A stretch of DNA of 64,000 bases. Source: an uncultured Trueperaceae bacterium (lineage in GTDB: Bacteria > Deinococcota > Deinococci > Deinococcales > Trueperaceae). The notes beneath the pieces are model-generated. The model made no database searches. It was not told where the DNA came from and worked only from the letters and a program-made list of their open reading frames with translations. How positions within the stretch are numbered: the stretch's first letter is position 1; each line of letters starts with the position of its first letter. The DNA lies in contig CAWFFU010000008.1 of NCBI GenBank assembly GCA_963815215.1, positions 160,001 to 224,000 on the forward strand. The letters run 5' to 3'. This document shows, one piece after another, positions 637 to 54,903 of this stretch. A program made the translations under genes and the position numbers.

Positions 637-658
637 CGGGCCGCGGTGTCCCGGGGAG

Positions 659-1552: not shown

Positions 1553-1622
1553 GCCCCATGCTAGAGGCGACATCCGTTCCGTTCGGTAAGGCAGGCCGCC
1601 AACGGATGGCCGCGGCCCCCGC

Positions 1623-5462: not shown

Positions 5463-5542
5463 GCGACCGGCCTATCCCGGTCCCCTGTGGGGGACCGCCG
5501 CATCCAGCTTAGCGGTTCCCGACCCCCCGTCGCGTGCCCTGC

Positions 5543-6211
5543 CTAGGGTTCGAACACCGACCAGCCCAGGTCGGAGGCGGTGCGCCGCAGCACGCGATCG
5601 GGGTAGACGGCGACCGGCCGGTCGCTCAACAGCAGCATCGGAACGTCGTCGCCGGAGTCGCCGTAGGCAGCGTAGAGCCGCTCGCTCCCCAACGCCTCGT
5701 GGAGCCGTCGCGCCTTGGCGTCGCCGACGTTCAGCGCACCGTCCAACCCACCGGACAGCCGATCGTCGCGAAGGGCGACGGGACTGCCGATCGCGAGCGG
5801 AGCGGGCGAACTGGGATCGTGGTGGAGACGTCGCGCGAAGGCCTCCACCACCGGCTGGAAGGCACCCGATGCCAGCACCAGTCGCTCGCCGGCAGCCTGG
5901 TGCACGCGCAGCGCAGCCACCACCTCGGGCCGCCGGAGCGGCCACAGCACGTTCTCGACCACCCAGGACGCGGCCTCCGCGAAGGCATCGGCCCGGTCGC
6001 CGGCGAAGAGGTCCAGGAGGGAGAGCATCCAGCGCTCGCGGACCGGCTCGATCGGGACGAGCCCGCTGCGCGCCAGGAGCGCCGACGGCAGGTTGCGCGC
6101 GAAGGTGCGCCGGTAGGGCCTAGCGCGACCGTGCGCCACCAGGTACGCGCCCAGCGCGCGCCAGGTCTGCCCGGTGGTCAGCGTGCCCTCGAGGTCGGAT
6201 GCGACCGCCAC
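5543..6211 (-). CDS. HAD-IB family phosphatase (SerB-like)
   Basis: SDLEGT motif I, LASG motif II, K, YGDSGDD motif IV; TATAAC 7 nt before GTG at 6211. Confidence 0.85.
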   Translation of the reverse strand: MAVASDLEGTLTTGQTWRALGAYLVAHGRARPYRRTFARNLPSALLARSGLVPIEPVRERWMLSLLDLFAGDRADAFAEAASWVVENVLWPLRRPEVVAALRVHQAAGERLVLASGAFQPVVEAFARRLHHDPSSPAPLAIGSPVALRDDRLSGGLDGALNVGDAKARRLHEALGSERLYAAYGDSGDDVPMLLLSDRPVAVYPDRVLRRTASDLGWSVFEP

Positions 6212-6272
6212 GTGGTCCGTTATACCCCGTGACCGGCGCGCCTCCACGGCCCACCCCGGCTACAGTGATGGC

Positions 6273-6959
6273 GTGGACGTTCGTATGACCGAGGACGGAA
6301 GCCGCACCCTGCTGTCGGCACGCTACCGCGAGACCTACCACTCGCAGCACGGCGCGGCCACGGAGTCCCGACACGTCTTCCTGGAGGGGAGCGGCGTTGC
6401 CCGGCGCCTGGCCCAGGGGTGGCCTACCACGGTGCTCGAGGTCGGTTTCGGGGCCGGCCTCAACACCCTGCTCACGTTGGCCGAGGCCGAGCGTTGGGGC
6501 ACGCCGCTGCGCATCGTCACGCTGGAGAGCGATCTGCTCCCGGTCGCAGTGTTGCGCGAGCTCGACTACCGCAGCCTGTTGCCCCGACCCGAACTCGGCG
6601 ATCAGCTGCTCGATTGGCTGGCGAGCCTGCGGAGCGGCGCATGGGCCCACGCAACGATGCTTGCCGGCAGCCGGCTGGAGCTGCTCCTGGTCGATGCGCG
6701 GCACGCCGCCTTGCCGGTTTCCGCCCACGCCGTCTACCACGACGCCTTCAGCCCCGACGTCAACCCCGAGCTGTGGGAGAGCCCGTTCCTGGGTCGTTTG
6801 TTCGGAACGCTCGCCCCCGGGGGCAGCCTGGTGAGCTACACCGTGAAGGGCGTCGTCCGTCGGCGGCTCGCGGCGCTGGGCTTCGAGGTCTCCAAAGCTC
6901 CAGGCCCGCCCGGCGGCAAGCGCGAGATGCTCGTCGCACGACGACCGGCGGAGCCGTGA
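6273..6959 (+). CDS. mnmD: tRNA mnm5s2U34 methyltransferase (MnmC methyltransferase domain, stand-alone)
   Basis: TEDGSRTL, YHSQHGA..ESRHVF, LEVGFGAGLN, DAFSP..NPELW, PGPPGGKREM. Confidence 0.88.
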   Translation: MDVRMTEDGSRTLLSARYRETYHSQHGAATESRHVFLEGSGVARRLAQGWPTTVLEVGFGAGLNTLLTLAEAERWGTPLRIVTLESDLLPVAVLRELDYRSLLPRPELGDQLLDWLASLRSGAWAHATMLAGSRLELLLVDARHAALPVSAHAVYHDAFSPDVNPELWESPFLGRLFGTLAPGGSLVSYTVKGVVRRRLAALGFEVSKAPGPPGGKREMLVARRPAEP

Positions 6960-7963
6960 GCGGAGCTCCGATCGCCGTGGTGGGGGCGGGCGTCGCCGGC
7001 CTCTCGCTGAGCTACGCGCTCCTGAGGCGCGGACTCGAGGTGGCCGTGTTCGAGCGGGGCCACGTCGGCGCCCAGGGGGCCTCCTCCGGACCGGCCGCCC
7101 TGCTCAACCCTTACCGGGGACACAGCGCCCGCGCCCATGAGGACGATCTCGCCGGCCTGGCCGCCTTCTGGCGCATGGCCGAGGCGTTGCGCTCGCGTGG
7201 CCTCGACCCCGGCGCCACGCGCTGCGGGGTGCTGCGACTCGCGCCGAGCGAGCGCCGTGCTCGCGCCTGGCGGAAGCGGGAGGGGGTCCGCTGGCTCGAG
7301 CCGTACGAGGTCCCTCCCCCCTATCACGCCCCCTTCGGCGCGTTGCTGGCCGAGGACGGCGGCTGGCTCCGGCCGCGCGTCCTGCTCGCCGGCCTGCACG
7401 CCGCGACGCTGGCGCTGGGCGGCGAGGTCCGTGAGGGGGTGCGGGTGCTGCGGCTCGAACCGGCCGCCGCCGAGGTCCGGCTGGTGACCAGCGCGGGCGC
7501 CTTCACGGCGTCGCGGGTGGTGCTGTGCGTGGGCGCGGACGCGGCGCCCGAGCTGCCGCTCCCGCCGCTGAGCTCGGTAGCCGGCGAAGTGGTCGAGGTG
7601 GCGACCGGCGGCCTGCCGGTGCCGCCGCGACTGCCGCTGGGCGGCTCGGTGTACGCCGCCTTCGACGGTGATCGCGGTTACGTCGGGGGCGGCCACCGCG
7701 ATCCCGAGTCGCCCGACCCGGAGGGGCCCCGGCGCCTGCTCCGTCAACTCGACCGGTCGCTGCCCGGCATCGGCGGCAGCACCGGGTTGACCCTCTGGAG
7801 CGGCGTGCGGGCCCGCGGCGACACGCTCAGGCCGATGGTGGTCGAGCGCGCACCGCGCGTCACCTTCTTCGGCGCGCTGGGCGGACGGGGCTTCCTGGTC
7901 TCGGCTCGCCTCGCCGAGACGCTGGCCGAGACGCTGAGCGAGCGGCTAGCGCGCGACGGCTAG
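6956..7963 (+). CDS. FAD-dependent oxidoreductase (DAO family, MnmC oxidase-like)
   Basis: VVGAGVAG, GASS, WSGVRA, GALGGRG; GTGA overlap with the mnmD stop. Confidence 0.82.
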   Translation: MSGAPIAVVGAGVAGLSLSYALLRRGLEVAVFERGHVGAQGASSGPAALLNPYRGHSARAHEDDLAGLAAFWRMAEALRSRGLDPGATRCGVLRLAPSERRARAWRKREGVRWLEPYEVPPPYHAPFGALLAEDGGWLRPRVLLAGLHAATLALGGEVREGVRVLRLEPAAAEVRLVTSAGAFTASRVVLCVGADAAPELPLPPLSSVAGEVVEVATGGLPVPPRLPLGGSVYAAFDGDRGYVGGGHRDPESPDPEGPRRLLRQLDRSLPGIGGSTGLTLWSGVRARGDTLRPMVVERAPRVTFFGALGGRGFLVSARLAETLAETLSERLARDG

Positions 7964-38873: not shown

Positions 38874-39392
38874 ATGCGCGAGCCCGCCCAAGCCACGACG
38901 TCACGCACCCGCGTCTCGGAGCTCGAGGTCGAGCGTTACCTGGCCGAGCACATCCCACTGGCCCGGGCGCTCGGGGCCACGGTGGACCGCTACGACGCCC
39001 GCGAGCTGCGCCTTCGGGCGCCACTACATCCCAACCTCAACCACCGGCACACCGCCTTCGGCGGCAGCCTCTCGGCTCTGGCCATCCTGGCCGGCTGGGC
39101 CCGCGTGACCTTCGACCTTCGCGCCGACGGGGTGAGCGCCCACGTGGTCGTGCAACGCTCCAGCGTCGACTTCGACACGCCCGTGGAGAGCGACTTCGAG
39201 GTGCGCATCGAGGCGAGCGACGAGACTTCCTGGGCCGTCTTCCGGCGCACGCTGGCGAGACGGCGGAAAGCACGCATCACCGTGCTGGGTGCGCTCTTCG
39301 CGGCCGGGGAGCCGGTGGCGCGCTTCGAGGCCCGCTACGTGGCGCTCTCCGCCGAGCCCGACGCCTCCTCCCGGCCGCGCTCGAACAGGTAG
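38874..39392 (+). CDS. YiiD C-terminal-like hotdog thioesterase
   Basis: HIPL...LG, APL.PN.NH..TAFGGS, F...L...RKARI, FEARY. Confidence 0.85.
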
Positions 39393-42300
39393 AACGCTGC
39401 CGGCACCACGAAGAACGTGAGCAGCGCCGAGACCAGGATGCCGCCGAGCATCACCAGCGCGATGCCGTGGTTGAACTCCGACCCCGCGCCCCTGCCCAGC
39501 AGCAACGGGAAGCTGATGACCAGGACCGTTAGCGTGGTCATCACGATGGGCCGGAAGCGGAGCCTTGCGGACTCGACCATCGCCTGTTTGAAGGGCATCT
39601 TGCCGATGCGCTCGACCACGAACTCCAGATAGAGGATGGCGTTCTTGGCCGACAGTCCGATCAGCAGCAGCATCCCCATGAGGCTGAAGATGTCGAGCGA
39701 CTGACCCTGCACCACCAGGAACCACACCGCCCCGGCCACCGCCAGCGGCACCGGCAGCAGCAGGTAGATGGGGTAGCGGAAGGAGTTGAACTGCGCCCCC
39801 ATCACCAGGTAGGCCAGCAGCAGCGCCAGTGCGAACACCTGCGGCCCCAGCGTGCCGAGCTGCCGGGACAGCGCCGCACGACCGAACCGGTCGCCCGTCC
39901 CCAGGGTGACGTGGCTGTCGAGCACGCCTGCCTGCGTGAGCTGCTCGGTGATCTGACGCTGGAACTCGATGGGGCTGGGAGCGCCGGCGCTCGGCGTGAT
40001 CGAGAAGCTCGCACTGTACAGACGGTTGCTGCGACTGATGCTGATGGGCGCCTGCTTCTCGATGATGGCGCCGAGCTGGCTGACCCGCAGGTTGGTCCGC
40101 AGCGAGGGCGAGTAGATCGGCAGCGACAGCAGCGACTGCGCGTCGTGGAGGTAGCTGGGATCGAGCTGGACCACGATGCTGTCGCTCTCGCCGCCGCTCT
40201 GTACGCTGCCTGCGTTGGACCCGCCGGTGTAGGTGCGCAGCAGTTGCGCGACGCTGCTGGCGGTGATGCCGGTGCCGGCGAGCAGGTTGGGGTTGGGCAC
40301 GAACACCGACTCGGGCGAGGCCTGCTGGTTGCCGACATCCACGCTCAACACGTCCGGGTCCCCGGACAGCACGCTCGAGACCCGTTGCAGCCGCTGGTTG
40401 AGGAGCGCGTAGTCGGTGGACAGCAGGTCGAACGACACCCCCGAGCCCTGCCCTCGGAAGCCGCCGCCGGTGCGCACGAACAACCGCGCCCCGGGAATGG
40501 CGCTGGCCGCGCTCTGCAGCGCTCCCTGGTACTCGGCGCCGAGCGCATAGATGCTGGGCCGCTGCGTGACGGGCACGAGCTGGGCCTGCACGTTGACATC
40601 GTTGCTGCTCACACTCGTCTGGACCGTGCGCACCGCCTTCTGGGTCAGCAGGTAGCGTTCCACGTTACCGGCCACCTGATTGGCCGCCGCCAGCGTCGTC
40701 CCTGAAGGCAGGCGGGCACCGATCTGCATGAGGCCGGAGTCGGTCTGGGGCACGAAGTCGAGCGACACCCTGGGGCCCACCACGAACACCGTGAGCGCCA
40801 GGAAAGCGCCCGCCCCCAGCAGGACCCAGACGCTGAAGGGAAGCATGCGGGAGAGCAGCGCGGCGTACGCGTCGCGCGTCCGCCGCAGCCCGGCCTCGGT
40901 CCAGCCGTGCAGCGTCGTGGTGAGCGCTTCCAGCACCGTGAAGACGATCCGGACCAGGTAGGCGAGGACCATGAGGGTCGGCGGGTAGAGGATCAGCGCG
41001 AGCAGCGCCAGGGGAGTGACCCAGTGCCACAGGGCGTAGCCGGCCGCGGCGGCCCCGAGCAGCCCGAACGATCGCCGCCAGGAGCGCCACCCCCAGCGAA
41101 CGGCGTCACCGACCGCGAACAGGCTGCGGCCCGCGTCGCGCCAGCCTCGCGCCGGCGCGTCGCCGATGTAGGCCATGCGGACGGTCAGGAACAGCAGCGC
41201 CTCGAGCCACGACAGGAACACTGCGGCCGCCAGCCCCAGCCCGAACTGCCGCAGGTAGGCGCCCGCGAAGCCGCCCATGAAGCTCACCGGGATGAGGACC
41301 GCCAGGATCGACAGCGACGCCGCGGTGACGGCGCCGAACACCTCGCTGGCGCCTCGCAGCACGGCGGTGCGCCGGTCCATGCCCATCGCCCGGTAGCGCT
41401 CGACGTTCTCGGCGACGACGATGGAGTCGTCGACGACGATGCCGATCGCCACGATGAGCGCGAGCAACGACACCTCGTTGAAGGTGAAGCCGAGCAACCC
41501 GTAGAGCACCGGCGCGGCCGAGAGCGCGATGGGGATGGCCAGGATCACGGTGAACGCGGTGTTGAGGCGCCCCAGGAAGAGCAGCACGATGATCGCCACC
41601 ACGATGGCGGTGATCCAGAGCTCGTGGAAGGTGGAGTGCACCGACGCCACGATGGGGCCGGTGGTGTCGTTGCTGACGGTGATGGTGTAGCCGGTGGGCA
41701 GCACCGTGCGCTTCAGGTAGGCGCGCACCCCGTTGGCCACGGCCACCGCGTTGCTGCCCGACGCCTGCTGAACGGACAGGAGCACCGCGGGCTTGCCGTT
41801 GACGCGCGTGTAGGTGCTGGCGATGGAGGCCTGCTGCACCCGGCCCAGATCCTGCACACGGACGTTGCGGCTGTTGTCGACCACCATGGTGGCGATGTCC
41901 TGCACGCCGCTGGGCTGGGTATTGGTGGAGAAGGTCAGGACGTCGTTGTTCCGCGTGATCGAGCCGATCGGCTGGTTGACGATCGACGAGCCGATGGCCT
42001 GGCTCACCTGCTGCGGCGTGAGGTCGTAGTAGTTCAGCTTGGCGGGGTCGAGCAGCACCTGGTAGCGCCGGCTCGAGCCGCCCGAGACGTTGACGTTGGC
42101 GACGCCTGGAACGAGTTGCATGGCCGGCACCAGGATGTTGTTGGCATAGGCATAGACGTCGTCCATGTTGGCGCCGTTGCCCTGGAGGCCGAGCTCCAGG
42201 ATGGGCTGCGCGTTGGGGTCGAAGGTCCGCACGATCGGCGAGTTGGCGTCGGAGGGAAGGCCGCGCAGCGCAGCGACCTGAGCGGCGACGGCATTGGCGA

Positions 42301-42691
42301 TCGCGGCCTGGTTGGTGTCGGTGCCGAACTGCAGGATCACGCGGCTCGAGCCGGTACCGCTGTTCGAGCTGATGCTGGTGATGCCTCCCACCGTCGACAC
42401 GGCGGACTCCACCACCTGCGTGACCTGCTGATCGACCACCGCGGGCGAGGCGCCGGGGTAACTGGTGGCCACCATCACCACCGGGATGTTGGTAGAGGGG
42501 AGCAGGTCCACGCCCAGGCGGCTGGTCTCGATCAGCCCGAAGACCACCACGCCGACGAAGATGCCGATCGCCAGCACGTAGCGGGCGACCGATAGCCCCA
42601 CCAGCGGGTTGACCCGGGTGGCGACGACCGCGTTCGCCTCTTCGGGTGCGTCCGAAGGACCTGGAGAGCCTTCCCGCTCGTCCGGGCCCAT
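39335..42691 (-). CDS. RND efflux transporter permease (left operon)
   Basis: [41 protein letters not shown]. Confidence 0.95.
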
Positions 42692-44379
42692 CACTGCCCT
42701 CCGCCGCCCGACGGGGTGCTGCCGCCGGCAGGCACGCTACGCCGGGACGAGGGCGCCACGCTGGGCCCGGCCCCGTTCGCACCGGCCCGGCTCGCACCGG
42801 CCGCGTTCGCACCGGCCCCGTTCGGTGCGGTGCCCGTCGGGGACGTGCCCGCAGGGGACGTACCGGCGGCGGACGCTCCCGCACGAGAGGCGCCCGTAGC
42901 GCCGCCCACGCGCGGGTTGCGGCCGCTCGCCGCGCTCTGTCCCGTGGCCGGGCCACCGCCAGCCGGCACGCGGCCGGTCGGAACGCCACCACCCGGCGCG
43001 CTACCGCCCGATGCCCCCCCGCCGGCAGCGCTGACGCTGGAGCCGTCGAGCAGGCCCGGCGGCGGCTGATCGATGACCGTTGCACCCGATGGGACCCCGC
43101 TCACGGCCGCCTGGTTCCCGGCTTGCGCCAGGATGGTCAGGTTGGTCTGCACCGCCTTGCCTCCCTGGATCAAGAACACGAAGGTATGGGTGCCATCGTT
43201 CTGGACGGCGCTGATCGGCACGATCGTGGCCGTTGCCAGGGTGACCCGGTAAGGAACCGTGCCCACCACGCCGACGGCGGGCGGGTCGGCGGCGGCGCCC
43301 TTCGCGGCACCGGAGGAGGAACCCGCAGCGCCGCCGCCAGGCCCGTCGAAGCGGGCGGTCACGGTGACACCCTGGTTGACAGGGATGCCCGGTCGCTGGA
43401 TGACGGTGACCGGGTATTGCGCGACGCCGGTGTCGAACGACAGACGCGTGCCGGCCGGGAAAGCGGTCGCGTCGGAGGGCGGCACCGACATCTGCACCTG
43501 CCGATCGACGCTGACCACCGTCGCCACTGCCGTCGACGGCCCCACGTACTCGCCGGGCGCGACGTTGAAGGCCGCGACCTGGCCCGCGAAGGGGGCCCGG
43601 ATGGTGGCATCGGCGAGGTTCATCTCCGCCTGCTTGACGCCGTTCTGCGCCTGCGACACGGCCAGCCGCAGCTGTTGGAGGCTGCCCGTCTGGGCACGTT
43701 GGTTCTGCGACAGGTTGTTCTCGGCCGAGGTCACGTTCGCCCGGGCCTGGTCGAGCTGGCTCTTGGCGCTGTCCACGCTCGCCTTGGAAGTGCCGCCGAG
43801 TGCGTAGACCTTCTGGGCCGAGGCGTAGCCCGACTCGGCGGCCGACAACGCCGACTTGGCAGCCTGCAATTGATGATCGAGCTGGGCGGCCGCCTGCTCG
43901 GTGTTCGTCTGCTGCGTGCTCAGGTTGATCTCAGCCGTGCTGAGCGACGTCTTGGCGTTGGCGAGGGAGAGCTGCAGGGTGTCGGTGGCGAGCTGCACGA
44001 TCGGCTGCTCGGCTTGGACGTCGTCGCCGGCAGCCACCAGCAGGGACTTCACGGTGCCCCCGGTCTGCGCCGCCACGTTGCTCTGCGTCACCGAGGTCAC
44101 CACAGCGGTGGCGGTGCGTTCGGCCACCAGCGGTGCGGACTTGACCTCTACGGCCTGCACCGCGATGGTGGCGCCGGTGCCGCCGCCGCCCGGGAAGCCG
44201 CCGCGCGCGGGCGCACCTGCACCGCCCCGCGCGAACCCGGGGGCGCCTCCGCGCGCGGCTCCGGCGGGAGCGCCGCCGCCCGTCCCGGCGGGAGCGCCCA
44301 CCCCGCCGCGAAGCGCGTAGCCGCCGATGCCGGCGGCCACCACCACCACGATCACGAAGACCCAACCGCGGGCCTTCAC
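42691..44379 (-). CDS. RND periplasmic adaptor (MFP) with Gly-rich linker and tail
   Basis: N-terminal TM, lipoyl halves GGTV..L.V..GD.V and IRAPFAG.V, long alpha hairpin, VPISAV. Confidence 0.9.
42769..42867. repeat. Degenerate 15-bp tandem repeats ([15 protein letters not shown]) in the MFP tail
   Basis: gcaccggcc...ttc/ctc units and ggggacgt units at 15-bp spacing. Confidence 0.7.
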
Positions 44380-45479
44380 GAGGAACCCCCGGCCCCCGAC
44401 GCGGCGGGGGCCACCAGACCGGTCAGGTCCTGACCGGCGGAGACGGAGAGCGTCACGAGCGCGTTGCGGTAGCCGTCGACGGCCTGCAGGAGGCTGAACT
44501 GCGACGAAGCGACGGCCACCTCATCGGACTGCACCTGGAGGGCGGACACGGTACCCGCCTGCAGTGCCGCCTGGTCCTGTTGCAGCACCGACTGGGCGTT
44601 GCCGAGGTTCTGCTGCGCGATAGCGATGCGAGCGTAGGCGTCATGGGCGGCCTGATAGGCGTTCGCGAGGCTGGTGGTGGCGTTCTGCCGGGCGGTGTCG
44701 AGGCTGCGCCGGGCGTTGTCGAGCGCCGTCTTCGCCGTCTGGTAGGTCATCCGGGGGGTGTAGTCGTTGTCGTAGAGCTTGGTCTGCAGCGTGTACAGCT
44801 CGACCGCCTGCTGCGCTTGCGCGACCGACGCCAGGCGTCCCAGCAGCCCCTGTTCGAGGTCGGCGAGCTTCGCGCTCACCTGCGGCAGGTCGGGTGGAGC
44901 GGCCGCCGTCACCGACCCCAGGTCGGTCACGCCCAGTAGCGTTGCGAGCTGCGAGCCCGCCACGGGCACCTTGGCCTGGGCATTGGCGAGGGTCTGTTGC
45001 GCGCTCTGCAGCACCGTCCGCGCCTTGGATACATCGAGCGACGTGGCGTTGCCGTCGCCGAACTTCGCCTGCGCCACCTGCAGGTCACGATCCGCGAGAT
45101 CCCGTTGGGCCTGCGCCAGGGCCACGTTCTGCTGCGCCTCGTAGAGCGACTGGTAGGCGTTGACAACGCTCTGCAGCACCTGGAGGCGCGTCGACTCGAG
45201 CGCGATCCGACTCTGGGCGGCGGCCTGCTGCGCCTGCGTCTTCTGCAACACCAACGCAGACGGGTCCGCCTGCACGGCCTCGAGCTGCAGCTCCGCGTTG
45301 GCCAGATTGGTCTGGGCGTTCGCCAGCGCGGTGCCCTGGCCGTACGCGCGGGCCAGCGCCTGGGGCAGGTCGATCGTCGCAGCCGGCGTCGCCGTAGGCG
45401 ACTGCGGCTCGACGGCGTTCTGCTGCGCCGACGCCACACCGACGATCAGGGCGACGAGGATGGCCGTGCGGATTCTCAT
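44376..45479 (-). CDS. TolC-family protein, short form with no recognisable beta-hairpins
   Basis: Signal peptide; two OEP helical repeats (NAY..L, KF..G.A..LDV; L.AG.VS...V); ATGA overlap with upstream gene. Confidence 0.82.
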   Translation of the reverse strand: MRIRTAILVALIVGVASAQQNAVEPQSPTATPAATIDLPQALARAYGQGTALANAQTNLANAELQLEAVQADPSALVLQKTQAQQAAAQSRIALESTRLQVLQSVVNAYQSLYEAQQNVALAQAQRDLADRDLQVAQAKFGDGNATSLDVSKARTVLQSAQQTLANAQAKVPVAGSQLATLLGVTDLGSVTAAAPPDLPQVSAKLADLEQGLLGRLASVAQAQQAVELYTLQTKLYDNDYTPRMTYQTAKTALDNARRSLDTARQNATTSLANAYQAAHDAYARIAIAQQNLGNAQSVLQQDQAALQAGTVSALQVQSDEVAVASSQFSLLQAVDGYRNALVTLSVSAGQDLTGLVAPAASGAGGSS

Positions 45480-46912
45480 GGGACGCCTCCGGGGGTTGCA
45501 GTGAGCTCTCCCAGCGCGTTGCGCAGTTGGAGCAGAGCCAGGTAGAGCGCGTTCTGATCGGACTCGACGGTCCGTTGGGCCCGGGCGTACGCGACCTTCG
45601 CGTCGCCGACGTCCAGGGTGACGGCCAGGCCGGCGGCGAGCCGCGCCTGCGCCGTTTCGAGAGCCTGGCGGGCGGCGGCCAGCGAGGCCGTGTCCGCGGC
45701 CAGCGACGCTTGAGCCGCCTGCCAGGACGCATAACGCTGGCGTATATCGAGCGCGGCGGCCCGTTCGGTGGCCGACAGCGCCGCCTGGGCGCTGGCCACA
45801 GCGGTGCGCGCGGAGCGCACGGCCGCATCTGACGACGGGGCGTCCAGCGGGATGCTGAGCGAGGCGCCGATGCTCAACTGGGTCGAGACGCTGCCGCTCG
45901 CACCCGGCGTAACGGGATAGGACGCGTTGCCGCTCACGACGCCCTTCTGGAAGTCGAGGGCGACGTTCACGCCGAGACCTGCCTGCGCGCCGCTGGTGTC
46001 GCTGCTCGACAGCCCCACGGCGAGGCTGGCGCCGGGGATCCAGCGTTGCGCCGCGACAGCCGACAGCGACGCCTGGGCCTGCCGCACCTTGAGCTCCGCC
46101 ACGCGCACATCGGTGCGCTTGGGCATGCCTGCTCCCACGAGCGAGTCGAGGGAACCGGCGGGCGCCGCTGGCTGCGGGGGAGCCGTCGTCAGGGGAGCTT
46201 CGCTGGCGGGAACGCCGAGGGTATCGAAGAGGGTCCGTCGATCGAGGTCCACGGCGCTCGCAGCCTGGGTCAGCGTTGCCTGGGCGCCGGCGACGGCCGC
46301 CCGCGCCTGAGCCAGGCCCTGGTCGCTCAGTTGCCCCTGGGCTTGCTGTGCCGTGGCCGCGGCGAGCCTGGCTTGCGCCTGGTCGGCCGCGGCCTGCGCC
46401 ACGTCGCGCGCGCCCGCCGCCTGACGGGCGGCGAAGTATTGCTGCTCCACGGTGAGTCGCAGCCCCGCGCGCGCGGCGTCGCGCCCGAGCGTGGCCACGG
46501 CCAGCGCCGTTTCGGCGTTGGCGATCGCAGCGTCCACGGGCGCCCACGGCAGCACCGTCGCGGAGGCCGACACCGAGACCTTGGCCGCCACTGAGTTCCG
46601 GCCGCCGCTGCCCGCCAGCGTGTCGGTGCGGTCGTAGCTGCCCCCCGCAGACACCTGCAGCCCAGCGTTGGCGCGGGCGGCGGCCAGTGCGTCCGCAGCG
46701 CTCTGGACGTCGAGGTCCGCCTTCTGCCAGGCAGGGGCTCCGGAGAGCGCCGCCAGGGCGTCGGCCAGCGTGAAGCCGGATGCCTGCGTGGGGGACGGAG
46801 CAGGTGCCTGCGCAGCTGCCTGCGCGCGCGCCTGCGGAACCACCAGGAAAGGTGGCAGGACGAGCGCCAGGGCGAAGACCGCCCCCAGCCCTCGCATGCG
46901 GTTGGAACTCAT
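45476..46912 (-). CDS. TolC-family outer membrane factor, long form
   Basis: Signal peptide; OEP repeats (QQYF, RTDV, RL.AG....LDV) with amphipathic beta segments. Confidence 0.85.
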   Translation of the reverse strand: MSSNRMRGLGAVFALALVLPPFLVVPQARAQAAAQAPAPSPTQASGFTLADALAALSGAPAWQKADLDVQSAADALAAARANAGLQVSAGGSYDRTDTLAGSGGRNSVAAKVSVSASATVLPWAPVDAAIANAETALAVATLGRDAARAGLRLTVEQQYFAARQAAGARDVAQAAADQAQARLAAATAQQAQGQLSDQGLAQARAAVAGAQATLTQAASAVDLDRRTLFDTLGVPASEAPLTTAPPQPAAPAGSLDSLVGAGMPKRTDVRVAELKVRQAQASLSAVAAQRWIPGASLAVGLSSSDTSGAQAGLGVNVALDFQKGVVSGNASYPVTPGASGSVSTQLSIGASLSIPLDAPSSDAAVRSARTAVASAQAALSATERAAALDIRQRYASWQAAQASLAADTASLAAARQALETAQARLAAGLAVTLDVGDAKVAYARAQRTVESDQNALYLALLQLRNALGELTATPGGVP

Positions 46913-47056
46913 GCCGTCAAGCCTCCGTCACAGGCGTGCAGGAATCGCGCGTACGATGTGCACTTCATGTGCAGACGCAGGGATACCCTAGCAGGTCGCC
47001 GCGCCGCGGCGGCCGGGAAGTGCATCCGGGGCTACAGCGCGCGGACCGGGCCGGGC

Positions 47057-47106
47057 TGCTAGAATCGATAGTTGGCTATGTTGAACTTTTCAGAGTCCTC
47101 AACTGT
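47057..47106 (+). promoter_or_regulatory. Extended -10 promoter and AT-rich candidate MarR operator
   Basis: TGcTAGAAT at 47057-47065; ATAGTT-N10-AACTTT at 47068-47089 and a further AACTGT at 47101. Confidence 0.5.
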
Positions 47107-47160
47107 TGTCGCGGTTCGCGCGGGCTGCGCCCGCGGACCCGACCCCGTGCCCGCCTCACC

Positions 47161-47604
47161 GTGGCCGTGAGCGGCCCCCGCCCCGACACGCGCGCCGGGC
47201 TGCTGACCGAGCTGCACGAGATCACCTTCCGGATGATGCGGGCGCAGCGCCAGGTCGCCGAGCGGGCCTTCTCACCGCTCGGCCTGCGGCCGGTGCAGGC
47301 CTTCGCGCTCGCGATGCTGGGACAGGAGGCCAGCTACCCGAAGGAGCTGGCCCATCTGCTCGACGCTCCGCCCTCGGTGATCTCGGTGCTGCTGTCGGAC
47401 CTGGAGGATCGCGATCTGGTGAGCCGCACGGTCGACCCGGCCGATCGGCGCCGCGTACGGCTCGAGCTCACGCCCGCGGGGCGTCTCGCACTGGAGGCCA
47501 TCCACCACGCCTGGTTCGACGCCAACGCCCACCGCCTCGCCCGTCTCGGCACGGCCGACCTGGAAACGCTGGTGCGGATCCAGAAGGCCCTGCTGGAGGA
47601 CTGA
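47161..47604 (+). CDS. MarR family transcriptional regulator
   Basis: ELA..L, LE...LV.R..DP.DRR.V.L.LT..G; start 47161 or 47167. Confidence 0.9.
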   Translation: MAVSGPRPDTRAGLLTELHEITFRMMRAQRQVAERAFSPLGLRPVQAFALAMLGQEASYPKELAHLLDAPPSVISVLLSDLEDRDLVSRTVDPADRRRVRLELTPAGRLALEAIHHAWFDANAHRLARLGTADLETLVRIQKALLED

Positions 47605-47608
47605 CGCC

Positions 47609-48940
47609 ATGAAACGTGCCCTACTGCTCACGCTGCTCCTGCTGGCGCCGGCCGCCGCGGCCCAACAGGGCCAGGACGCGCCCACCCTCGCGTCCTTCCT
47701 CGCCCCCATCGTCAACCAACCGTCGCTGCGTGCTGTCGGCGAGCAGGTCGCGTCCGCGCAGGCCCAGCTCCGGGCGGCGTACGACCCAGTCTCGCTGCAG
47801 GCGTCCGGGGGCTACAGCGCCTTCAACACCACCTCGACCGACATCAACCCCGCGCAACCGGGCGTCCAGAACCTGCCGGCCAGCGGCGGTCAGATCTCGG
47901 CCGCGGTCACCGTGCGCCCCTGGCTCTTCGGCGACACAGCCGACCAGGCCGACAAGAGCCGGCTCCAGCTCGCGCAGGCCCAGCTCGACTACCGCGACGC
48001 CCTCACCGGCCTCCAGATCCAGGCGGTCCAGGCGGCCTACGGCGTGCAGCTCGCCCGGGAGTCGCTGTCCTCGGCCCAGGAGGGCGAGAAGGTCGCCCGG
48101 GCGGCACTCGACGCCACCGGCTTGCGCAACACCAAGGGGGCGGCCAGCGACCGCGACCTGCGCAGCGCACAGACCGGCCTGCAACAGGCCCAACAGTACG
48201 TGGCCAATGCCGAAGGTGGCCTGGCGCTGGCGCAGACCACCCTTGAGAGCCTGGTCGGCCCCACCGCCGCCCCGGACGTGGCGACCCTGACTCTCAAGGT
48301 CCCGGACGGTACCGCCCTGTCGGTCCAGAAGGCACGCTTGAGCGCCGAGTTGGCCGCGGTCTCGGTGCGCAATGCCACACGCTCCGTCTACCCGGTGGTG
48401 CAGGCCGGTTACACCTGGAACGTCGACAGCAAGGACAGCCTCGGGGTGTCGATCGAGTCGCGCACGCTCCAACCGAAGGTCAGCTACGACTTCCAGAGCC
48501 CCGGCACCAGCTTCCCGCAGGACCAGATCAACGGCAACTTCCAGATCGGCGTGTCGCTGACGTTCTCCCCCGGTGTCATCGACGGGCTGCAGGCCACCCA
48601 CGCGCAGCTCAGGGCGGCCCAGGACGGCGTCGACGCGGCGGTGCGCAGCGCCGCGGTGCAGAAGGCCTCGATCGACAACGACCTCGCCCAGGCCAAGCGC
48701 GCCCTGAGTCTGGCGCAACGCCAGGTCGACGACGCGCGCACCACCTTGCACGAGGACCAGACCCGCCAGAAGCTCGGGCTGGCCACCCCCCTAGCCACCC
48801 AGCAGGCGGCGCTCGATCTGACGCAACGCCAGCTCGATCTTCAGCAGGCCCGCCAGGACGTCCTCGCCAAGACCCTGGCGTACTACCGCTTCTACGCCCA
48901 CCCTCTGGTGAGCCAGACCGTGTCGGAGGTCCAGCCGTGA
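47609..48940 (+). CDS. TolC-family outer membrane factor, long form
   Basis: Signal peptide; OEP repeats (QAAY, R..KG.AS; RQKLG.AT) with amphipathic beta segments. Confidence 0.85.
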   Translation: MKRALLLTLLLLAPAAAAQQGQDAPTLASFLAPIVNQPSLRAVGEQVASAQAQLRAAYDPVSLQASGGYSAFNTTSTDINPAQPGVQNLPASGGQISAAVTVRPWLFGDTADQADKSRLQLAQAQLDYRDALTGLQIQAVQAAYGVQLARESLSSAQEGEKVARAALDATGLRNTKGAASDRDLRSAQTGLQQAQQYVANAEGGLALAQTTLESLVGPTAAPDVATLTLKVPDGTALSVQKARLSAELAAVSVRNATRSVYPVVQAGYTWNVDSKDSLGVSIESRTLQPKVSYDFQSPGTSFPQDQINGNFQIGVSLTFSPGVIDGLQATHAQLRAAQDGVDAAVRSAAVQKASIDNDLAQAKRALSLAQRQVDDARTTLHEDQTRQKLGLATPLATQQAALDLTQRQLDLQQARQDVLAKTLAYYRFYAHPLVSQTVSEVQP

Positions 48941-50079
48941 AACGTCCCATCCTCGCCCTCGTCGGCATGCTGCCGCTGCTGTTCCCGGCGGCCCACGCGT
49001 TCGGATTCCAGGACGCCCTGCAGGCCGCGCAGACGCGGCCCGACGCCGTGACCAAGCGGCTCGAGCTGCTCAACGACAGCAACGAGCTGGTCCGCGTGCA
49101 GGGCGATCCCCTCGCCCTCAAGATGGACGTGGTCAAGGCCCAGCAAGCGGTCGCGCTCGATCGCGCCCAGCTCGAGAAGGCCTACGACGACGCGCTGGTG
49201 ACGATCGCCAAGGCCTACACGGGCGTCCTCGAGGCGCGCGAGCAGGCGGCTCTGGCCGACAAGGGAGTGACCGTCGCCCAGGCATCGCTCGACATCGCCA
49301 AGATCCGGCTCTCCAACGGCAGCGGCACCGACCTCGACGTTCAGGACGCCCAGGTTTCCCTCGACAACGCCACCAAGAACGCGCAGACCGCGCACAAGAG
49401 CCTGGCGATCGCCGAAGCGAACCTCGAGGGGCTGGTCGGGCAGACCCTCGACCCTGGCGCCCTCGAGCCGATCCCCGATGCCTTCCTGGTGGCCGTTCCG
49501 TCTACCGACGCCGCCACCCTGGCGCTGCCGCGCACACCTCAGCTGCTGCAGTCACAGCAGGGCCTGGTGCTGGCCGGGCTCGGCGTCCAGATGCTCGACC
49601 CGAGCTACGCCTCGGCCTCGCAGATCGAGTCCGCCAAGACGCAGCTCCAGACCACCGAGAAGCTCGTCGCAGAGGCCCGGCGCGGCCTCCAGATCCAGGC
49701 CAGGAACCTGGTGGTCCTGGCCCAGAGCGCGGCGGAGTCCTTCCGCATCGAGAAGGACAACCTGAACAACGCCGACCAGCGGCTCGGGTTCGCCTCCGAC
49801 CGGCTGAACGCAGGCCTGATCCCCAAGATCCAGTACCAGAAGGCGGAGCTCGATCAGCTCCAGGCCAAGCTCGCGGCGCTGCAGGCGCGCGACGGCTACG
49901 TGGTCGCGCTGCTCCAGCTCCAGGCCGGCACTCAGGTCCAACTGCAGGGACCGAGCGTCTACGACTTCGCGGCCACCGTTGGCCCGCTTCCCGGCGATGC
50001 TGGCGCCGCACCCGGCACGGCCGGGGGCGGCACGACATCCGGTGGGAGCGCGGGCAACGGTGGCGGCAATGGCCAGTAG
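48937..50079 (+). CDS. TolC-family protein, short form with no recognisable beta-hairpins
   Basis: Signal peptide; KAY..VL, RL.NG.GT.LDV, RL.AGLI; GTGA overlap. Confidence 0.82.
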   Translation: MKRPILALVGMLPLLFPAAHAFGFQDALQAAQTRPDAVTKRLELLNDSNELVRVQGDPLALKMDVVKAQQAVALDRAQLEKAYDDALVTIAKAYTGVLEAREQAALADKGVTVAQASLDIAKIRLSNGSGTDLDVQDAQVSLDNATKNAQTAHKSLAIAEANLEGLVGQTLDPGALEPIPDAFLVAVPSTDAATLALPRTPQLLQSQQGLVLAGLGVQMLDPSYASASQIESAKTQLQTTEKLVAEARRGLQIQARNLVVLAQSAAESFRIEKDNLNNADQRLGFASDRLNAGLIPKIQYQKAELDQLQAKLAALQARDGYVVALLQLQAGTQVQLQGPSVYDFAATVGPLPGDAGAAPGTAGGGTTSGGSAGNGGGNGQ

Positions 50080-51358
50080 GGCGGCCCGTCGCTCCCTCAC
50101 TCCCCTGCTGCTGGCGCTGATGCTGATCCCGTTGGCGGCATGCGGCGGCCGCAACGCGAGCAAATCGAGCGCCGCCTCGACCGCCGCCCCCACCGCCGCG
50201 CAGACGGCGAGCGGACCGGGGGCCGGCAGTGACGTGCGCAAGGTGCGCGTCTTCCAGCCCCGCCAGGGCGCGCTCACGGCGCAACGCAGCGCCTCGGTGA
50301 CCATCGATCCGTCGCGCTCGTCGATGGTCGCGGCAGGCACGTCCGGGCAAGTGGCCGCGGTGCTCCACCGCGAAGGCGCCACCGTGAAGGCCGGCGAGAC
50401 CGTTGTGCAACTCGACACCACCTCGCTGAAGCTCCAGGTCCAGAACGCCAGGACCGCCTTGGAGAGCGCCAACGTCAACCTCAGCAGGGCCGAGCAATCG
50501 GCCAAGGACGGCCTGGCACAGGCCCAAGCCGCGCTCGAGGCAGCCCAGCAGAACCTGGCGCTGGCGCAGAAGCAGGTCGATGACGGGCACAACCTATTCG
50601 CCGCCGGCGGCATATCGGCGACCGACCTGCAGAGCCTGCAGGCACAGCTCGCACAGGCCCGCTCCGGCTACCAGCAGGCCAGCGACGCTGTCAACAAGGC
50701 CGGGCGCGCCGAGACCGAGGACCTGCAGCTGCAGCGTCTGCAGGTGCAACAAGCTCAGACCCAGCTCGACCAAGCGCGTCACACCCTCGACGAGGCCAGC
50801 ATCACGGCGCCGTTCGACGGGCAGATCGCGGACATGCGCGTCGCCGAAGGGGAGTTCGTGGGCACCGGCAGCGCTGTCTTCCGACTCGTCTCCACCACGA
50901 CCCAGCTCGCACGATTCAACGTTCCGCCGCAGGACGCCCAGCAGCTCTCCGACAAGGGCCTGGTCTACGTGAGCTACGGCGGCCTAGACTACGCCGCCAA
51001 GATCATCCGCAGCACCACCGTGACGGGATCGTCGCGGCAGGTGGAGCTGACCGCCAGCGTCTACGCCTCCAAGCACCCCATGCCGACCGGCGCGACCGGT
51101 CAGGTCAACTACCAGGTGACGCTGGCGTCCGGGCTATTGCTCCCGTCCGACGCGCTCAAGACCGACAGCGGTGAGAGCACGGTGCTGCTGGTCAAGGACG
51201 GCGTCGCGACGCAGACGAAGGTGCAGCTCCTGGCCGAGGTCGGGGGCACCGCCGCGATCCAGGGCCTAACGGCCGGCGCTCAGGTCGTCTACCCGGTCCC
51301 CAGTGACCTGCTGGCGGGCTCCAAGGTCCAGGTCGTGGGGGGCGCCACCTCGCCATGA
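50069..51358 (+). CDS. RND periplasmic adaptor (MFP), lipoprotein
   Basis: Lipobox LAAC, SGQV....G..V..G, LF.AG.IS tip, ITAPFDG.I. Confidence 0.92.
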   Translation: MASRAARRSLTPLLLALMLIPLAACGGRNASKSSAASTAAPTAAQTASGPGAGSDVRKVRVFQPRQGALTAQRSASVTIDPSRSSMVAAGTSGQVAAVLHREGATVKAGETVVQLDTTSLKLQVQNARTALESANVNLSRAEQSAKDGLAQAQAALEAAQQNLALAQKQVDDGHNLFAAGGISATDLQSLQAQLAQARSGYQQASDAVNKAGRAETEDLQLQRLQVQQAQTQLDQARHTLDEASITAPFDGQIADMRVAEGEFVGTGSAVFRLVSTTTQLARFNVPPQDAQQLSDKGLVYVSYGGLDYAAKIIRSTTVTGSSRQVELTASVYASKHPMPTGATGQVNYQVTLASGLLLPSDALKTDSGESTVLLVKDGVATQTKVQLLAEVGGTAAIQGLTAGAQVVYPVPSDLLAGSKVQVVGGATSP

Positions 51359-54300
51359 GACGCCTGGTCCAGTTCTTCGTCAACAACTACGTCCTGACCA
51401 TCAGCGTCTTCGGGGCCCTGGTGCTGTTCGGCGCGGTGAGCACCCTGAGCCGCGGCATCGAGCTGTTCCCACCCATCACCGTGCCGGTCATCGCCGTCAC
51501 CACTAGCTACAGCGGGGCGGGACCCGAGGAGGTGTCGCGCCAGGTGGCGCAGCCCGAGGAGGGCGCCCTCACCACGCTCCCCGGCATCAGCTCCGTGAGC
51601 TCGGTCAGCTACGAGGGCTACGCCATCGTCATCGCCCAGTTCAACGCCAACGCCGACATCAACCAGGCCGCCATCGACGTGAGCCAACGTATCTCCCAGA
51701 TCGGCAACCAGCTCCCCAACGGCGCCGGCAACCCGACGGTCCAGAAGTTCAACCCCAACGACCAGCCGATCCTCAGCGTGGCGGTCTCAGCGCCCGGTCA
51801 GGATCTGATGGCCGTGCAGAACTACGCCGAGAACACGCTGCAGCCCGCCATCGAGAGGGTCAACGGGGTGGCGGACGTCACCGTGGTGGGGCCGGCCAAG
51901 GAGCAGGTGCAGGTCCTGCTCGACCCCAACGCGCTGGCCAACTTCGGCCTGACCCCCCAGCAGGTGGCGAGCGCCATCCAGGCGTCGGCACTCGACGTAC
52001 CGGCCGGCAGCCTGGATTTCGCCAACAGCCGCGTTCTGCTCACGGCGCGCGCCACTCCGACCGATCTCGCTCAGGTGGCGTCGATCCCGGTCGATCCCTC
52101 GCGCGGCCTCACCGTCTCCGATGTCGCCACGGTGCGCGACACCACCGCCAGGCCCACCTCCTACGCGCGCCTGAATGGCGAGCCGGTGGTACTGCTTCAG
52201 GTGCGCAAGCTGTCCGACAGCAACGCCGTGGCGACCGCCAACGACCTGCGTGCCGCACTGAAGAAGCTCGACATGCCTGCCGGCTACAGCACGCAGATCG
52301 TGGGTGACACCACGACCTACGTTGCGTCCAGCGTCTACGACACCCTGCAGGAGATGTTGATCGCAGCCCTCGCCGTCTCCCTGGTCGTGCTGATGTTCGT
52401 CGGCCGGCTCGGCTCGGTGTTCGCGGTGGTGCTCGCGATCCCGGTGGCGCTGTCCGGCGCGCTGGTGATGTTCTGGCTGTTCAACTACAGCTTCAACATC
52501 ATCACGCTCCTCGCCCTCACCGTCGCCATCGGCCTGGTGGTGGACGACGCCATCGTGGTCGCCGAGAACATCGACCGCTACCGGGAGATGGGATACGCAC
52601 GCCACGAGGCGGTGCTCAAGGGCGCAAGCGAGGTCTCAACGGCGGTCCTTGCGGCGACCATGTCGCTGCTTGCGGTGTTCCTGCCGATCTCGTTCCTGCC
52701 CGGCATCATCGGCCAGTTCTTCGCCCAGTTCGGCATCACCCTGGCAGCCACCGTGGCCTTCAGCTACTTGGAGGCGATGTTCTTCCTGACGGTCCGCCTG
52801 GCGCTGTCGCCAGATCCTTTCCCGCCGTCGTGGCGCGAGTTCCCGACGACGCTGCGGGGGACCTCCAGCGATCTGCGTTGGGGCCTGCACTTCTACCGCA
52901 GCGTCTGGTTCTGGCTCATCGCCCTGGTCGCGGGCGCCGGCCTCGTGCGGGGCCTGGGCGTGCGCTACCTGGCGCTGCTGGTGCTGCTGCCGGTGCTGCT
53001 GGTGCTGCTCCGCATGCTCCTACGCGTCGTGCTCGCGGTGCTCGGGGCGCTCTCGCTCAACCTGTTCCAGGTGGGCGACTTCCTGGTCACGCGAACCCGC
53101 GACGCCTACGTGGCGGCGCTCTCGCGCCTGCTCCCACGATCCTGGACGGTTCTCCTCACGGCCGGGCTGCTGTTCGCCAGCCTGTTCTGGGTGTTCCCGC
53201 GCATCGGCTTCAACTTCCAGCCGCCGTCGGACACCGGCCAGCTCGTCGTCGACGCCCGCCTACCGGTGGGGACCAGCCTGGCACGCACCAACGAGGTGGC
53301 CACACAGATCGAGGCCAACCTGCTGGCCGACCCTATCGTGACGACCGTGCAGACGACGGTCGGCTCCGGCACCCAGGTCGGCGGGGCGCTGCCCGAGGAC
53401 GCCAGCCTGACCGTTCAACTCGTCGACAAGAGCCAGCGCCACCGCACCACCACCGAGCTGGCGGTAGCCGTCCAGGACCGCTTGCGCACGATGTTCGCCG
53501 CCCACCCGGAGATCCGCATCAACGTCGGCAGCTCCGACCCCAGCAACGCCCCCACCAACGCCGGCTACGACCTGACGCTGGCGTCGACCAACCTGGACGC
53601 GCTGCGCCAACACGCCAACCAGGCGGTGGTCGTGCTCCAGGGCGACTCGCAACTCCGCAACGTTCGCTCCGACGTGTCCTCCAGCTCCACCGAGCGCGTC
53701 TTCGTGGCGGACGCCGCGCAACTGGCAGGCACCGGCCTGACCCGCGCGCAGGTCTTCCAGGCCCTGCGGACCTACAACGTCGGCACCCGGGCCGCCACCA
53801 TGCGCAAGGCCGGCGTGGAGATCCCCATCCAGGTGATGGCCGCTCCCCGCGACCTCGTGAACGAGCAGACCATCCTAAGCCTGCCGCTGTACGCACCCGG
53901 CCTGCAGACCACCGTCACGCTGGGCGACCTCGGTCACTTCGAGACCCGCCTCGCCCCCGCGGTGATCCGGCGCACCAACCAGTCGTACAGCGCCGACGTG
54001 ACGGCCGACCTGGCGCCGGGCGTGACCCAGTCCGAGGCGAAGAAGGAGGCGCACCAGCGGCTGGTGGCGGCCGGCGTCCTCGACGCCCAGGTGGTGCAGA
54101 CCACCAGCGGCAACCTCAACCTGCTGGGCGACCTGCTCAAATACGGACCGATCGCCTTCGCACTGGCCCTGCTGCTGAACTACCTCGCGATCGGCAGTCA
54201 GTTCAACTCCTTCAAGTACCCGCTCTACCTGTTGCTGACGGTCCCGCTGGCGCTGGTCGGCGCGATCTGGCTGTTCTACATCACCGGCAACTCGCTCGAC

Positions 54301-54903
54301 GTCATCAGCATCCTGGGGGTGGTGATGCTGGTGGGCCTTGTCACCAAGAACGCCATCCTGTTGCTGGACGTCACGATGCGACGGGTCACCGAAGGGAGCG
54401 ACCTCTTCACCGCTCTGGTGGAGGCCGGGCGCGTGCGCTTCCGGCCCATCGTGATGACCACCCTCACCGTCGTGGTCATCAGCATCCCGCTCATGGTCGG
54501 CGCCTCGCAGGGAGCGGAGTTCCGCTTCCCGCTGGGTCTGGTCATCGTGGGGGGCGTGCTCAGCTCGGCGCTTCTGACGTTCTTCGTGGTGCCTGCAGCC
54601 TTCTACCAGTTCGAGCGCAAGCGCTACGAGCGGCTGGGAGCGGCGGCCGTCCCTCGTGGCGGCGCGGCCCCGGACGCCTCACCCAGCGACAGCGGCGTGA
54701 GCGGCCCGGTGGAGGGTGGGCACGAGCGCTCCCCCCGGAGCGGTGGACCCGGCCCCTCGCAACGACGTCCGAGCGGCGCGAGCCCGAACACCGGTAGCCC
54801 GAACACCGGTAGCCCGAACACCGGTAGCCTGAACACCGCCACCGAACGTGGCCGCGCACGCACCGAGCCCGGGCACCCCGACGAGGCGACCGGGGGCCGC
54901 TAG
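51355..54903 (+). CDS. RND efflux transporter permease (right operon)
   Basis: [47 protein letters not shown]. Confidence 0.95.
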   Translation: MRRLVQFFVNNYVLTISVFGALVLFGAVSTLSRGIELFPPITVPVIAVTTSYSGAGPEEVSRQVAQPEEGALTTLPGISSVSSVSYEGYAIVIAQFNANADINQAAIDVSQRISQIGNQLPNGAGNPTVQKFNPNDQPILSVAVSAPGQDLMAVQNYAENTLQPAIERVNGVADVTVVGPAKEQVQVLLDPNALANFGLTPQQVASAIQASALDVPAGSLDFANSRVLLTARATPTDLAQVASIPVDPSRGLTVSDVATVRDTTARPTSYARLNGEPVVLLQVRKLSDSNAVATANDLRAALKKLDMPAGYSTQIVGDTTTYVASSVYDTLQEMLIAALAVSLVVLMFVGRLGSVFAVVLAIPVALSGALVMFWLFNYSFNIITLLALTVAIGLVVDDAIVVAENIDRYREMGYARHEAVLKGASEVSTAVLAATMSLLAVFLPISFLPGIIGQFFAQFGITLAATVAFSYLEAMFFLTVRLALSPDPFPPSWREFPTTLRGTSSDLRWGLHFYRSVWFWLIALVAGAGLVRGLGVRYLALLVLLPVLLVLLRMLLRVVLAVLGALSLNLFQVGDFLVTRTRDAYVAALSRLLPRSWTVLLTAGLLFASLFWVFPRIGFNFQPPSDTGQLVVDARLPVGTSLARTNEVATQIEANLLADPIVTTVQTTVGSGTQVGGALPEDASLTVQLVDKSQRHRTTTELAVAVQDRLRTMFAAHPEIRINVGSSDPSNAPTNAGYDLTLASTNLDALRQHANQAVVVLQGDSQLRNVRSDVSSSSTERVFVADAAQLAGTGLTRAQVFQALRTYNVGTRAATMRKAGVEIPIQVMAAPRDLVNEQTILSLPLYAPGLQTTVTLGDLGHFETRLAPAVIRRTNQSYSADVTADLAPGVTQSEAKKEAHQRLVAAGVLDAQVVQTTSGNLNLLGDLLKYGPIAFALALLLNYLAIGSQFNSFKYPLYLLLTVPLALVGAIWLFYITGNSLDVISILGVVMLVGLVTKNAILLLDVTMRRVTEGSDLFTALVEAGRVRFRPIVMTTLTVVVISIPLMVGASQGAEFRFPLGLVIVGGVLSSALLTFFVVPAAFYQFERKRYERLGAAAVPRGGAAPDASPSDSGVSGPVEGGHERSPRSGGPGPSQRRPSGASPNTGSPNTGSPNTGSLNTATERGRARTEPGHPDEATGGR
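54781..54838. repeat. 15-bp tandem repeat (SPNTG x3 plus a partial copy) in the RND tail
   Basis: AGCCCGAACACCGGT three exact copies, then AGCCTGAACACCG. Confidence 0.92.

Follow-up and report, generated by a model that had tools for sequence, protein, structure and literature searches.

Why would an efflux operon encode, next to a full-length outer membrane factor (OMF) of the TolC family, a second TolC-like protein that lacks the strands of a membrane barrel? The question is raised by a 64,000-nt stretch of DNA (hereafter, the window; positions 160,001-224,000 of contig CAWFFU010000008.1, assembly GCA_963815215.1, 70% G+C) from an uncultured Trueperaceae bacterium, in which two divergent RND operons flank a MarR gene and each holds a long OMF gene (L), a short one (S), an adaptor and an RND permease. 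The pairs of operons A and B are denoted L1-S1 and L2-S2 (Table 1), and L3 and S3 stand for the respective homotrimers. The L-S pair is a conserved, ancient feature, and modelling and covariation support a predicted TolC-like homotrimer into which S closes on itself. Tentatively, and at a little less than an even chance, we read S3 as a homotrimeric soluble alpha-tunnel that is placed in series with an L channel of six strands per protomer and lengthens the exit duct. The OMF of this lineage is probably a two-gene module, with S as a fourth part of the pump.

Fold and family of the short protein

The AlphaFold2 model of S1 (25-row alignment; pLDDT, the predicted value of the local distance difference test, 86.2; predicted TM-score (pTM) 0.77) contains no membrane strands. 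It consists of the helix 50-71, a turn (72-76), the helix 77-141, another turn, the helix 147-182, equatorial strands, the helix 217-236, a turn (237-242), the helix 243-307, a further turn and the helix 313-348. The tight turns 72-76 and 237-242 replace both TolC beta-hairpins while the coiled-coil helices are intact, in agreement with what the first-pass annotation of the window, made from the sequence alone, had read for the short proteins. A Foldseek search started with the S1 model identifies TolC, OprM, CusC and VceC with the probability of 1.00 and TMq of 0.61-0.72, all matches being barrel-bearing chains of 380-600 residues. The long helices of S span 65 residues, compared with 67-68 in L, so that S is a full-height tunnel.

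In S1 and S2, which share 28% identity, the Pfam family OEP (PF02321) covers only profile positions 85-187 of each repeat, whereas in L1 and L2 both repeats are matched in full; two OEP repeats score above the Pfam gathering score of 22 in all four proteins (62.4 bits for S1 and 85.4 for S2; Table 1 for L1 and L2). The cut-offs of the NCBIfam models TIGR01844 and TIGR01845 (225 and 210 bits) are reached by none of the four (L1 64.1, S1 58.5, L2 31.0, S2 68.5 bits), and the HlyD/membrane fusion protein (MFP) models have no match in the S proteins, the true adaptors being the next genes. Both S1 and S2 have signal peptides and lack a Cys lipobox; given the signal peptide and the absence of strands and lipobox, a soluble periplasmic location is expected for S.

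At its lower tips S has the motif that is usual for OMFs, G-x-x-T/S-x-L-D-V, and at its upper tips A-D-P-S/L and D-N/P-D/S-Y/F-T/A. An alignment of 152 S sequences (the best representatives at 50% identity together with S1, P0002, and S2, P0004) shows D72 and P73 to be invariant and both ends to be better conserved than the middle (entropy 0.93 at the top, 0.96 at the bottom and 1.20 between them). The segment at tip 1 has 23 or 25 residues in 139 of the 152 sequences and that at tip 2 has 23-24 in 137, the remainder being fragments; a hairpin-sized insert at either tip site is present in none of the 152. The three S subfamilies have common tip motifs, namely DPS[TA]L with DNDYTP, DPLALR with DPSYA, and a 25-residue tip 1 with NDYTP.

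The long protein and the missing strands

Solved members of the TolC family, following Koronakis in 2000, are said to be homotrimers with four strands per protomer. Protomers of this kind (12 strands per trimer) were obtained for neither partner: the AlphaFold2 models have six strands in L1 and none in S1. In the L1 model (26 rows; pLDDT 81.9 overall, 57-78 within the sheet), repeat 1 contributes two strands (86-96 and 107-119) and repeat 2 four (294-304, 314-320, 325-333 and 343-353), which agrees with the distribution of two and four proposed by eye in the first-pass annotation. The two extra strands of L1, GLGVNVALDF and VVSGNASYPV, show in their sequence the alternation of hydrophobic and polar residues seen in barrel-wall strands, and the linkers between strands and helices are 2-5 residues long. 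For L2, four strands in repeat 2 are predicted from the length of that segment in the alignment, 67 residues compared with 41-49 in four non-Deinococcota OMFs.

Six strands in L and none in S are what a heterotrimer would call for, in which one S replaces one L and the extra L hairpins complete a 12-stranded barrel (6+6+0). This arrangement was the first proposal made for the locus. It is also consistent with the enlarged repeat-2 sheet, which the alignment shows in each of the three L paralogues that this genome encodes and in 7/7 L genes beside S in a second phylum (see below), and with the tunnels of S and L, which are equally tall and both have canonical lower tips. Nevertheless, we regard the heterotrimer as improbable, in part because the 2-5-residue linkers would give little room for seating a two-fold barrel on a three-fold tunnel and because the genes are coupled one to one rather than two to one; two metagenome-assembled genomes (MAGs) even have two S per one L, albeit in incomplete genomes. 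Further evidence comes from the covariation described below.

Conservation of S and its pairing with L

Of 151 Deinococcota genomes, 133 have a match to S1 over its whole length (E<=1e-10). An exhaustive profile-free search with S against clusters at 50% identity yields 711 of them when the cut-off is E<=1e-3 and 120 when it is E<=1e-10. The homologs, of 330-390 residues, come from Deinococcales MAGs, Meiothermus, Thermus, Deinococcus, Deinobacterium, a Dictyoglomaceae MAG, and MAGs labelled 'Bacillota' and Atribacterota; in a protein atlas, the clusters nearest to S are Deinococcota TolC-family proteins.

The pairing with L recurs. A third L-S pair of the same genome forms the end of an adaptor-ABC-MacB-L-S operon (L001, G000:C11:457000-470000, 40-5576), so that the pairing is not tied to RND pumps, and 3/3 OMFs of this genome are paired with S across RND and MacB pumps. 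A PF02321 census of 13 Deinococcota genomes, a survey of the sort suggested in the first-pass annotation, finds the pairing without exception: all 21 full-length OMFs are followed by a half-profile S on the same strand, and one genome has neither OMF nor S. The upstream gene was recorded for 147 S loci (29 + 118) among the matches listed, after 5 too near contig ends had been dropped and with 88 further matches outside this set; an intact L open reading frame (ORF) lies directly upstream in 143 of them. In one of the others L is split across frames, and in three an ABC-2 permease, a TetR gene or an RND gene takes its place. Fused L-S proteins were sought in the range of 644-2000 aa, with no match; in itself, this is weak evidence.

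Two Deinococcota genomes (loci L026 and L177) have, upstream of an intact S, an L that is split across two frames, which could be a frameshift or an assembly error. Another locus of the genome under study (L002, G000:C4:45000-55000, 4483-7819) encodes a long-hairpin adaptor, an ABC protein and a MacB-type permease with no OMF or S nearby; this MacAB system presumably borrows an L-S pair encoded elsewhere.

Outside Deinococcota, Atribacter and related MAGs have S in the same operon as L, in the orders L-S, L-x-S, RND-L-S and L-adaptor-ABC-MacB-S. All seven L genes beside S in these loci have a repeat-2 sheet of 64-84 residues, compared with 41-49 in four other OMFs. Four genomes of this type contain one or two L and two S each, the genomes being incomplete. 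In three loci of 'Bacillota' MAGs (L035, L039 and L043; e.g., L035:1502-5956), an RND permease gene and the L gene that follows it occupy a single frame, uninterrupted by stops over 1456-1485 codons; these are probably two genes that share a frame rather than a fusion.

That S might be a copy of L that is decaying or has lost its function is suggested by the loss of strands and by nothing else. Intact frames, signal peptides and tip motifs are kept down to 22-30% identity, and the abundance of the family (the 711 clusters and the 133 of 151 genomes of the phylum) points in the same direction. The first-pass annotation considered decay unlikely on the strength of two operons; with the third pair of this genome, the 21/21 OMFs of the census, the 143/147 loci among the matches listed and a second phylum, it is hardly credible.

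Self-association of S

A model of three S1 chains has an ipSAE of 0.51 (0.47, 0.52 and 0.51 in three runs), compared with 0.00 for the best control, so that the homotrimer model suggested at the outset for the short protein passes. The runs agree in >=90% of contacts, with partner pLDDT >=87; in the calibration of these complex models, the mark was reached by 20/30 solved homomers and 1/23 monomers. The modelled interface sets H7 (254-301) against H4 (147-183) and H2 (53-57) of the neighbour and is composed of Gln, Asn, Thr, Ser and Ala. It is the TolC lateral interface, and for that reason the pass may partly be memory of TolC trimers.

Helices H7 and H4 are outer staves that cannot touch within one chain, and the S-S contact can therefore be tested by sequence covariation. 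Mean-field direct coupling analysis (DCA) of 187 non-identical S sequences (effective number of sequences, Neff, 130) recovers the intrachain registers H3xH4 (287), H7xH8 (622-623), H3xH2 (149-154), H7xH6 (478-479) and H3xH6 (310-314). Among the 76 windows of the H7xH4 block, the two best scores (0.065 and 0.052) belong to the register i+j = 445-446, the one predicted between protomers. The higher score, 0.065, compares with 0.052-0.073 for true hairpin contacts and with a maximum of 0.045 in the non-neighbour block H3xH7. For the 25 best S-S contact pairs, z is 1.66 by DCA (21/372 shifted sets are as high) and 1.69 by mutual information (MI; 19/372).

These results speak against the heterotrimer, because a ring with only one S has no place for S-S contacts. 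In a set of 140 non-identical L-S pairs (Neff 70), paired DCA places the S-S register (446) at rank 7/76 (z 1.39) and the L-L register (614) at rank 10/79 (z 1.29; the L-L register reaches z of 1.29-1.53 in these 140 pairs), whereas the heterotypic registers are inconspicuous: S_H7 x L_H4 (496) ranks 40/76 with z of 0.05, and L_H7 x S_H4 (565) ranks 75/79 with z of -1.40, a contrast that is weak evidence at this Neff. By paired MI, the heterotypic registers rank 37 and 10, with values near zero. The intrachain calibration of the paired DCA is itself weak, with expected registers at ranks 5-7 of 76-78 and one at rank 36; owing to this weak calibration in the smaller set, the paired DCA amounts to no support for lateral L-S contacts but not to proof against them. 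Thus, the 6+6+0 heterotrimer did not gain support, the S homotrimer model and the S-S covariation pointing away from it and heterotypic covariation being absent in a test of low power.

A putative fourth part of the pump

Under the duct reading that we tentatively favour, L would trimerise into the membrane channel, and L3 would probably combine a barrel of 18 strands with a tunnel of 12 helices. S would be exported by its cleavable signal peptide, carrying neither a lipid anchor nor strands, and would trimerise into a tunnel of 12 helices that stands on its own, measures about 10 nm in length and is open at either end, with six helix-turn-helix tips per end. The lower tips of S3 would receive six adaptor hairpins, and its upper tips would interdigitate with the six at the lower end of L3. 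In order, the parts would then be RND (or MacB), adaptor, S3 and L3, and the whole would exceed a tripartite pump in length by about 10 nm. We infer both the stoichiometry of L3 and the coaxial docking of S3 on it, the latter because the pairing is obligate and cognate, the ends of S are conserved, the lower tips of S are of the OMF type, the adaptor tips are ordinary, and a 12-helix top with six tips matches an adaptor hexamer. The first-pass annotation had mentioned a soluble spacer that lengthens the duct as an alternative to its heterotrimer; this alternative is the best fit to the data, with support for an S homotrimer from the results above and a conjectural contact of S with L.

Several observations weigh against a duct extender of this kind. 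Block-wise MI of L by S shows no enrichment of the S-top versus L-bottom block over other blocks, and the tip-tip pair L194/S240, although ranked 14th of about 161,000, is not above chance for its block. As regards S-S contacts, the MI window scan of the 187 S sequences does not place register 445-446 on top, unlike DCA, and the upper inter-protomer register H7xH2 (about 312) is inconspicuous in the S DCA. L keeps canonical lower tips, as though it were still meeting adaptors directly, and the conserved D-P and T-P at the tips of S may be helix caps left from the old helix-strand junctions. The co-occurrence of the extra L hairpin with S in two phyla is left unexplained, and a periplasm of 121 nm is not bridged by a single addition of 10 nm (see below).

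The same homotrimer evidence applies equally if S3 is a real tunnel that does not stand in line with L3 but serves, for example, as a cap or pre-assembly platform of the adaptor hexamer, as a control that opens or shuts L, or as a duct ending in the wall zone. The lower tips of S, which are canonical adaptor-receiving tips, are compatible with such roles, as are the 3/147 loci among the matches listed where S follows an ABC-2 permease, TetR or RND gene instead of L, and the Atribacterota-type loci in which S lies at the far operon end, after the MacAB genes. Yet S is nearly always cognate with and adjacent to L, and each pump has its own diverged L-S pair (28% identity between S1 and S2), which argues for a specific structural partnership of S with L. 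A role of S3 out of line with L3 is the runner-up among the explanations, albeit an unlikely one.

The envelope of these bacteria provides a possible rationale for an in-line S3. The window also encodes, in a stretch of lower G+C (0.63-0.65 compared with about 0.70), a SlpA/OmpM-like protein of 995 aa. It combines a signal peptide and an SLH domain with about 225 residues of heptad-like sequence that resembles a coiled coil and with a C-terminal part, rich in strands like a barrel, that ends in Phe; its SLH match is the only one in the genome, and the architecture is that of SlpA. For SlpA of Deinococcus radiodurans, the published work (PMC9388160) gives a wall that starts 30 +/- 3 nm from the outer membrane and a periplasm of 121 +/- 4 nm. 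By analogy, a longer duct likely suits an envelope whose outer membrane is kept some 30 nm away from the wall by a SlpA-type connector.

A TolC tunnel of 10 nm ends short of the wall, and one S3 would double the reach and still remain below 121 nm; for this reason, stacking of several S3 was considered. Units might be arranged head to tail between L3 and the adaptor in a duct of variable length, given that the upper tips of S would bind any canonical OMF lower tip and S itself carries such tips. Stacking appears very doubtful. If true, the duct could span the gap of 30 nm, or even a periplasm of 70-120 nm, and tetrapartite or polymeric ducts would be ancestral in the diderms with SlpA/OmpM tethers (Deinococcota, Atribacterota and Dictyoglomota).

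Operon layout and control region

The gene coordinates, peptides and translational coupling of the first-pass annotation are correct. Overlaps of 4 nt join all four genes of each operon, the S1 stop/adaptor start and adaptor stop/RND junctions included; the L-S junctions read ccATGAga (L1-S1) and ccGTGAaa (L2-S2), with GGAGG 7-8 nt upstream of each. The hairpins of both adaptors are long, with helices of about 55 residues, and their tips are ordinary. The likely start of the operon B adaptor is Met31 (about 50069), which would give a lipobox, LAAC, and the true start of the MarR gene is probably a GTG near 47170.

Table 1. Genes and regions of the window discussed in the text
Feature	Coordinates	Strand	Characteristics	Evidence
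SlpA/OmpM-like protein	18097-21084	-	995 aa	SLH match
Operon A RND permease	39335..42694	-		ACR_tran 606.8 bits
Operon A adaptor (MFP), P0258	42691..44379	-	N-terminal membrane anchor, long alpha-hairpin, Gly/Ala/Ser/Pro-rich tail	TIGR01730 108.8 bits, HlyD_3
S1, P0002	44376..45479	-	367 aa, secreted barrel-less TolC paralogue, turns ADPSA and DNDYTP	AlphaFold2, Foldseek
L1, P0001	45476..46912	-	478 aa, full-length TolC-family OMF with signal peptide	Pfam OEP x2, 121.8 bits; AlphaFold2 strands
Divergent control region	46913..47105	.	between L1 and MarR gene, short palindromes	sequence
MarR-family regulator	47106..47604	+	first gene of operon B	MarR_2/HTH_27 matches
L2, P0003	47609..48940	+	443 aa, full-length OMF, enlarged repeat-2 sheet	Pfam OEP x2, 94.1 bits; 67-residue repeat-2 segment
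S2, P0004	48937..50079	+	380 aa, second barrel-less paralogue, turns GDPLA and DPSYAS, Gly-rich C-tail	Pfam OEP profile 86-187 only
Operon B adaptor (MFP), P0257	49979..51358	+	helices of about 55 residues, hairpin tip FAAGGISATD	TIGR01730 150.6 bits
Operon B RND permease	51355..54903	+		ACR_tran 661.2 bits

Palindromes are found at 46955-47145, e.g., GATGTGCACTTC at 46955-46966 and an imperfect 23-nt inverted repeat at 46981-47027; those of the divergent control region are candidate MarR operators. A promoter and terminator scan of that region retrieved nothing, and no sigma-70 consensus was found in it. Three proteins have a long low-complexity tail rich in Gly, Ala, Ser and Pro: the operon A adaptor (about 130 residues, in addition to a Gly-rich N-terminal stretch), S2 (about 45 residues) and the operon B RND permease, where it is C-terminal.

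Comparison with known systems

Searches of PDB sequences with the S and L profiles identify full-length OMFs only, none of them from Deinococcota, and no paper on barrel-less or paired TolC homologs was found in the literature searched, a body that lies outside most subscription journals and supplements. If the predictions are true, an L paired with S would be the first case of an OMF whose strand count departs from the canonical one, and S would be a natural soluble version of the TolC tunnel. S is, moreover, a concrete candidate for the missing piece in efflux across the gap of about 30 nm between outer membrane and wall in deep-branching diderms, and one that is easily testable in Thermus thermophilus or D. 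radiodurans.

Among the known systems, the SlpA/OmpM connectors share with the S-bearing pumps the lineages and the wide gap but are tethers or porins outside efflux pumps. According to PMC9388160, the long coiled coil of SlpA sets the distance between outer membrane and wall; the relevance of these connectors is likely confined to providing a reason for a longer duct. That tripartite pumps can have further parts is indicated by YbjP, a lipoprotein that binds Escherichia coli TolC with 3:3 stoichiometry, as described in PMC13095208 and PMC13082787. YbjP is, however, an unrelated lipoprotein located outside TolC near the membrane, whereas S is a paralogue of the tunnel itself.

The TolC/OprM/CusC family (PF02321, TIGR01844/TIGR01845) has in common with L and S the two-repeat fold, tunnel helices of 65-68 residues, the equatorial domain, the lower-tip motif G-x-x-T/S-x-L-D, and the setting in RND and MacB operons. 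The difference lies in the strands, four per protomer in the solved members compared with six predicted in L and none in S.

The closest geometric parallel is provided by the adaptors. Their hairpins form a hexamer that is a soluble 12-helix tube, with six tips that dock on the six lower tips of the OMF. The coaxial tip-to-tip docking of the AcrA, MacA and EmrA hexamers on TolC is the geometry proposed here for the top of S3. S is not homologous to these adaptors and differs from them in that it lacks the lipoyl, barrel and membrane-proximal domains, the membrane anchor and the R-L-S tip motif, and has tips at both ends.

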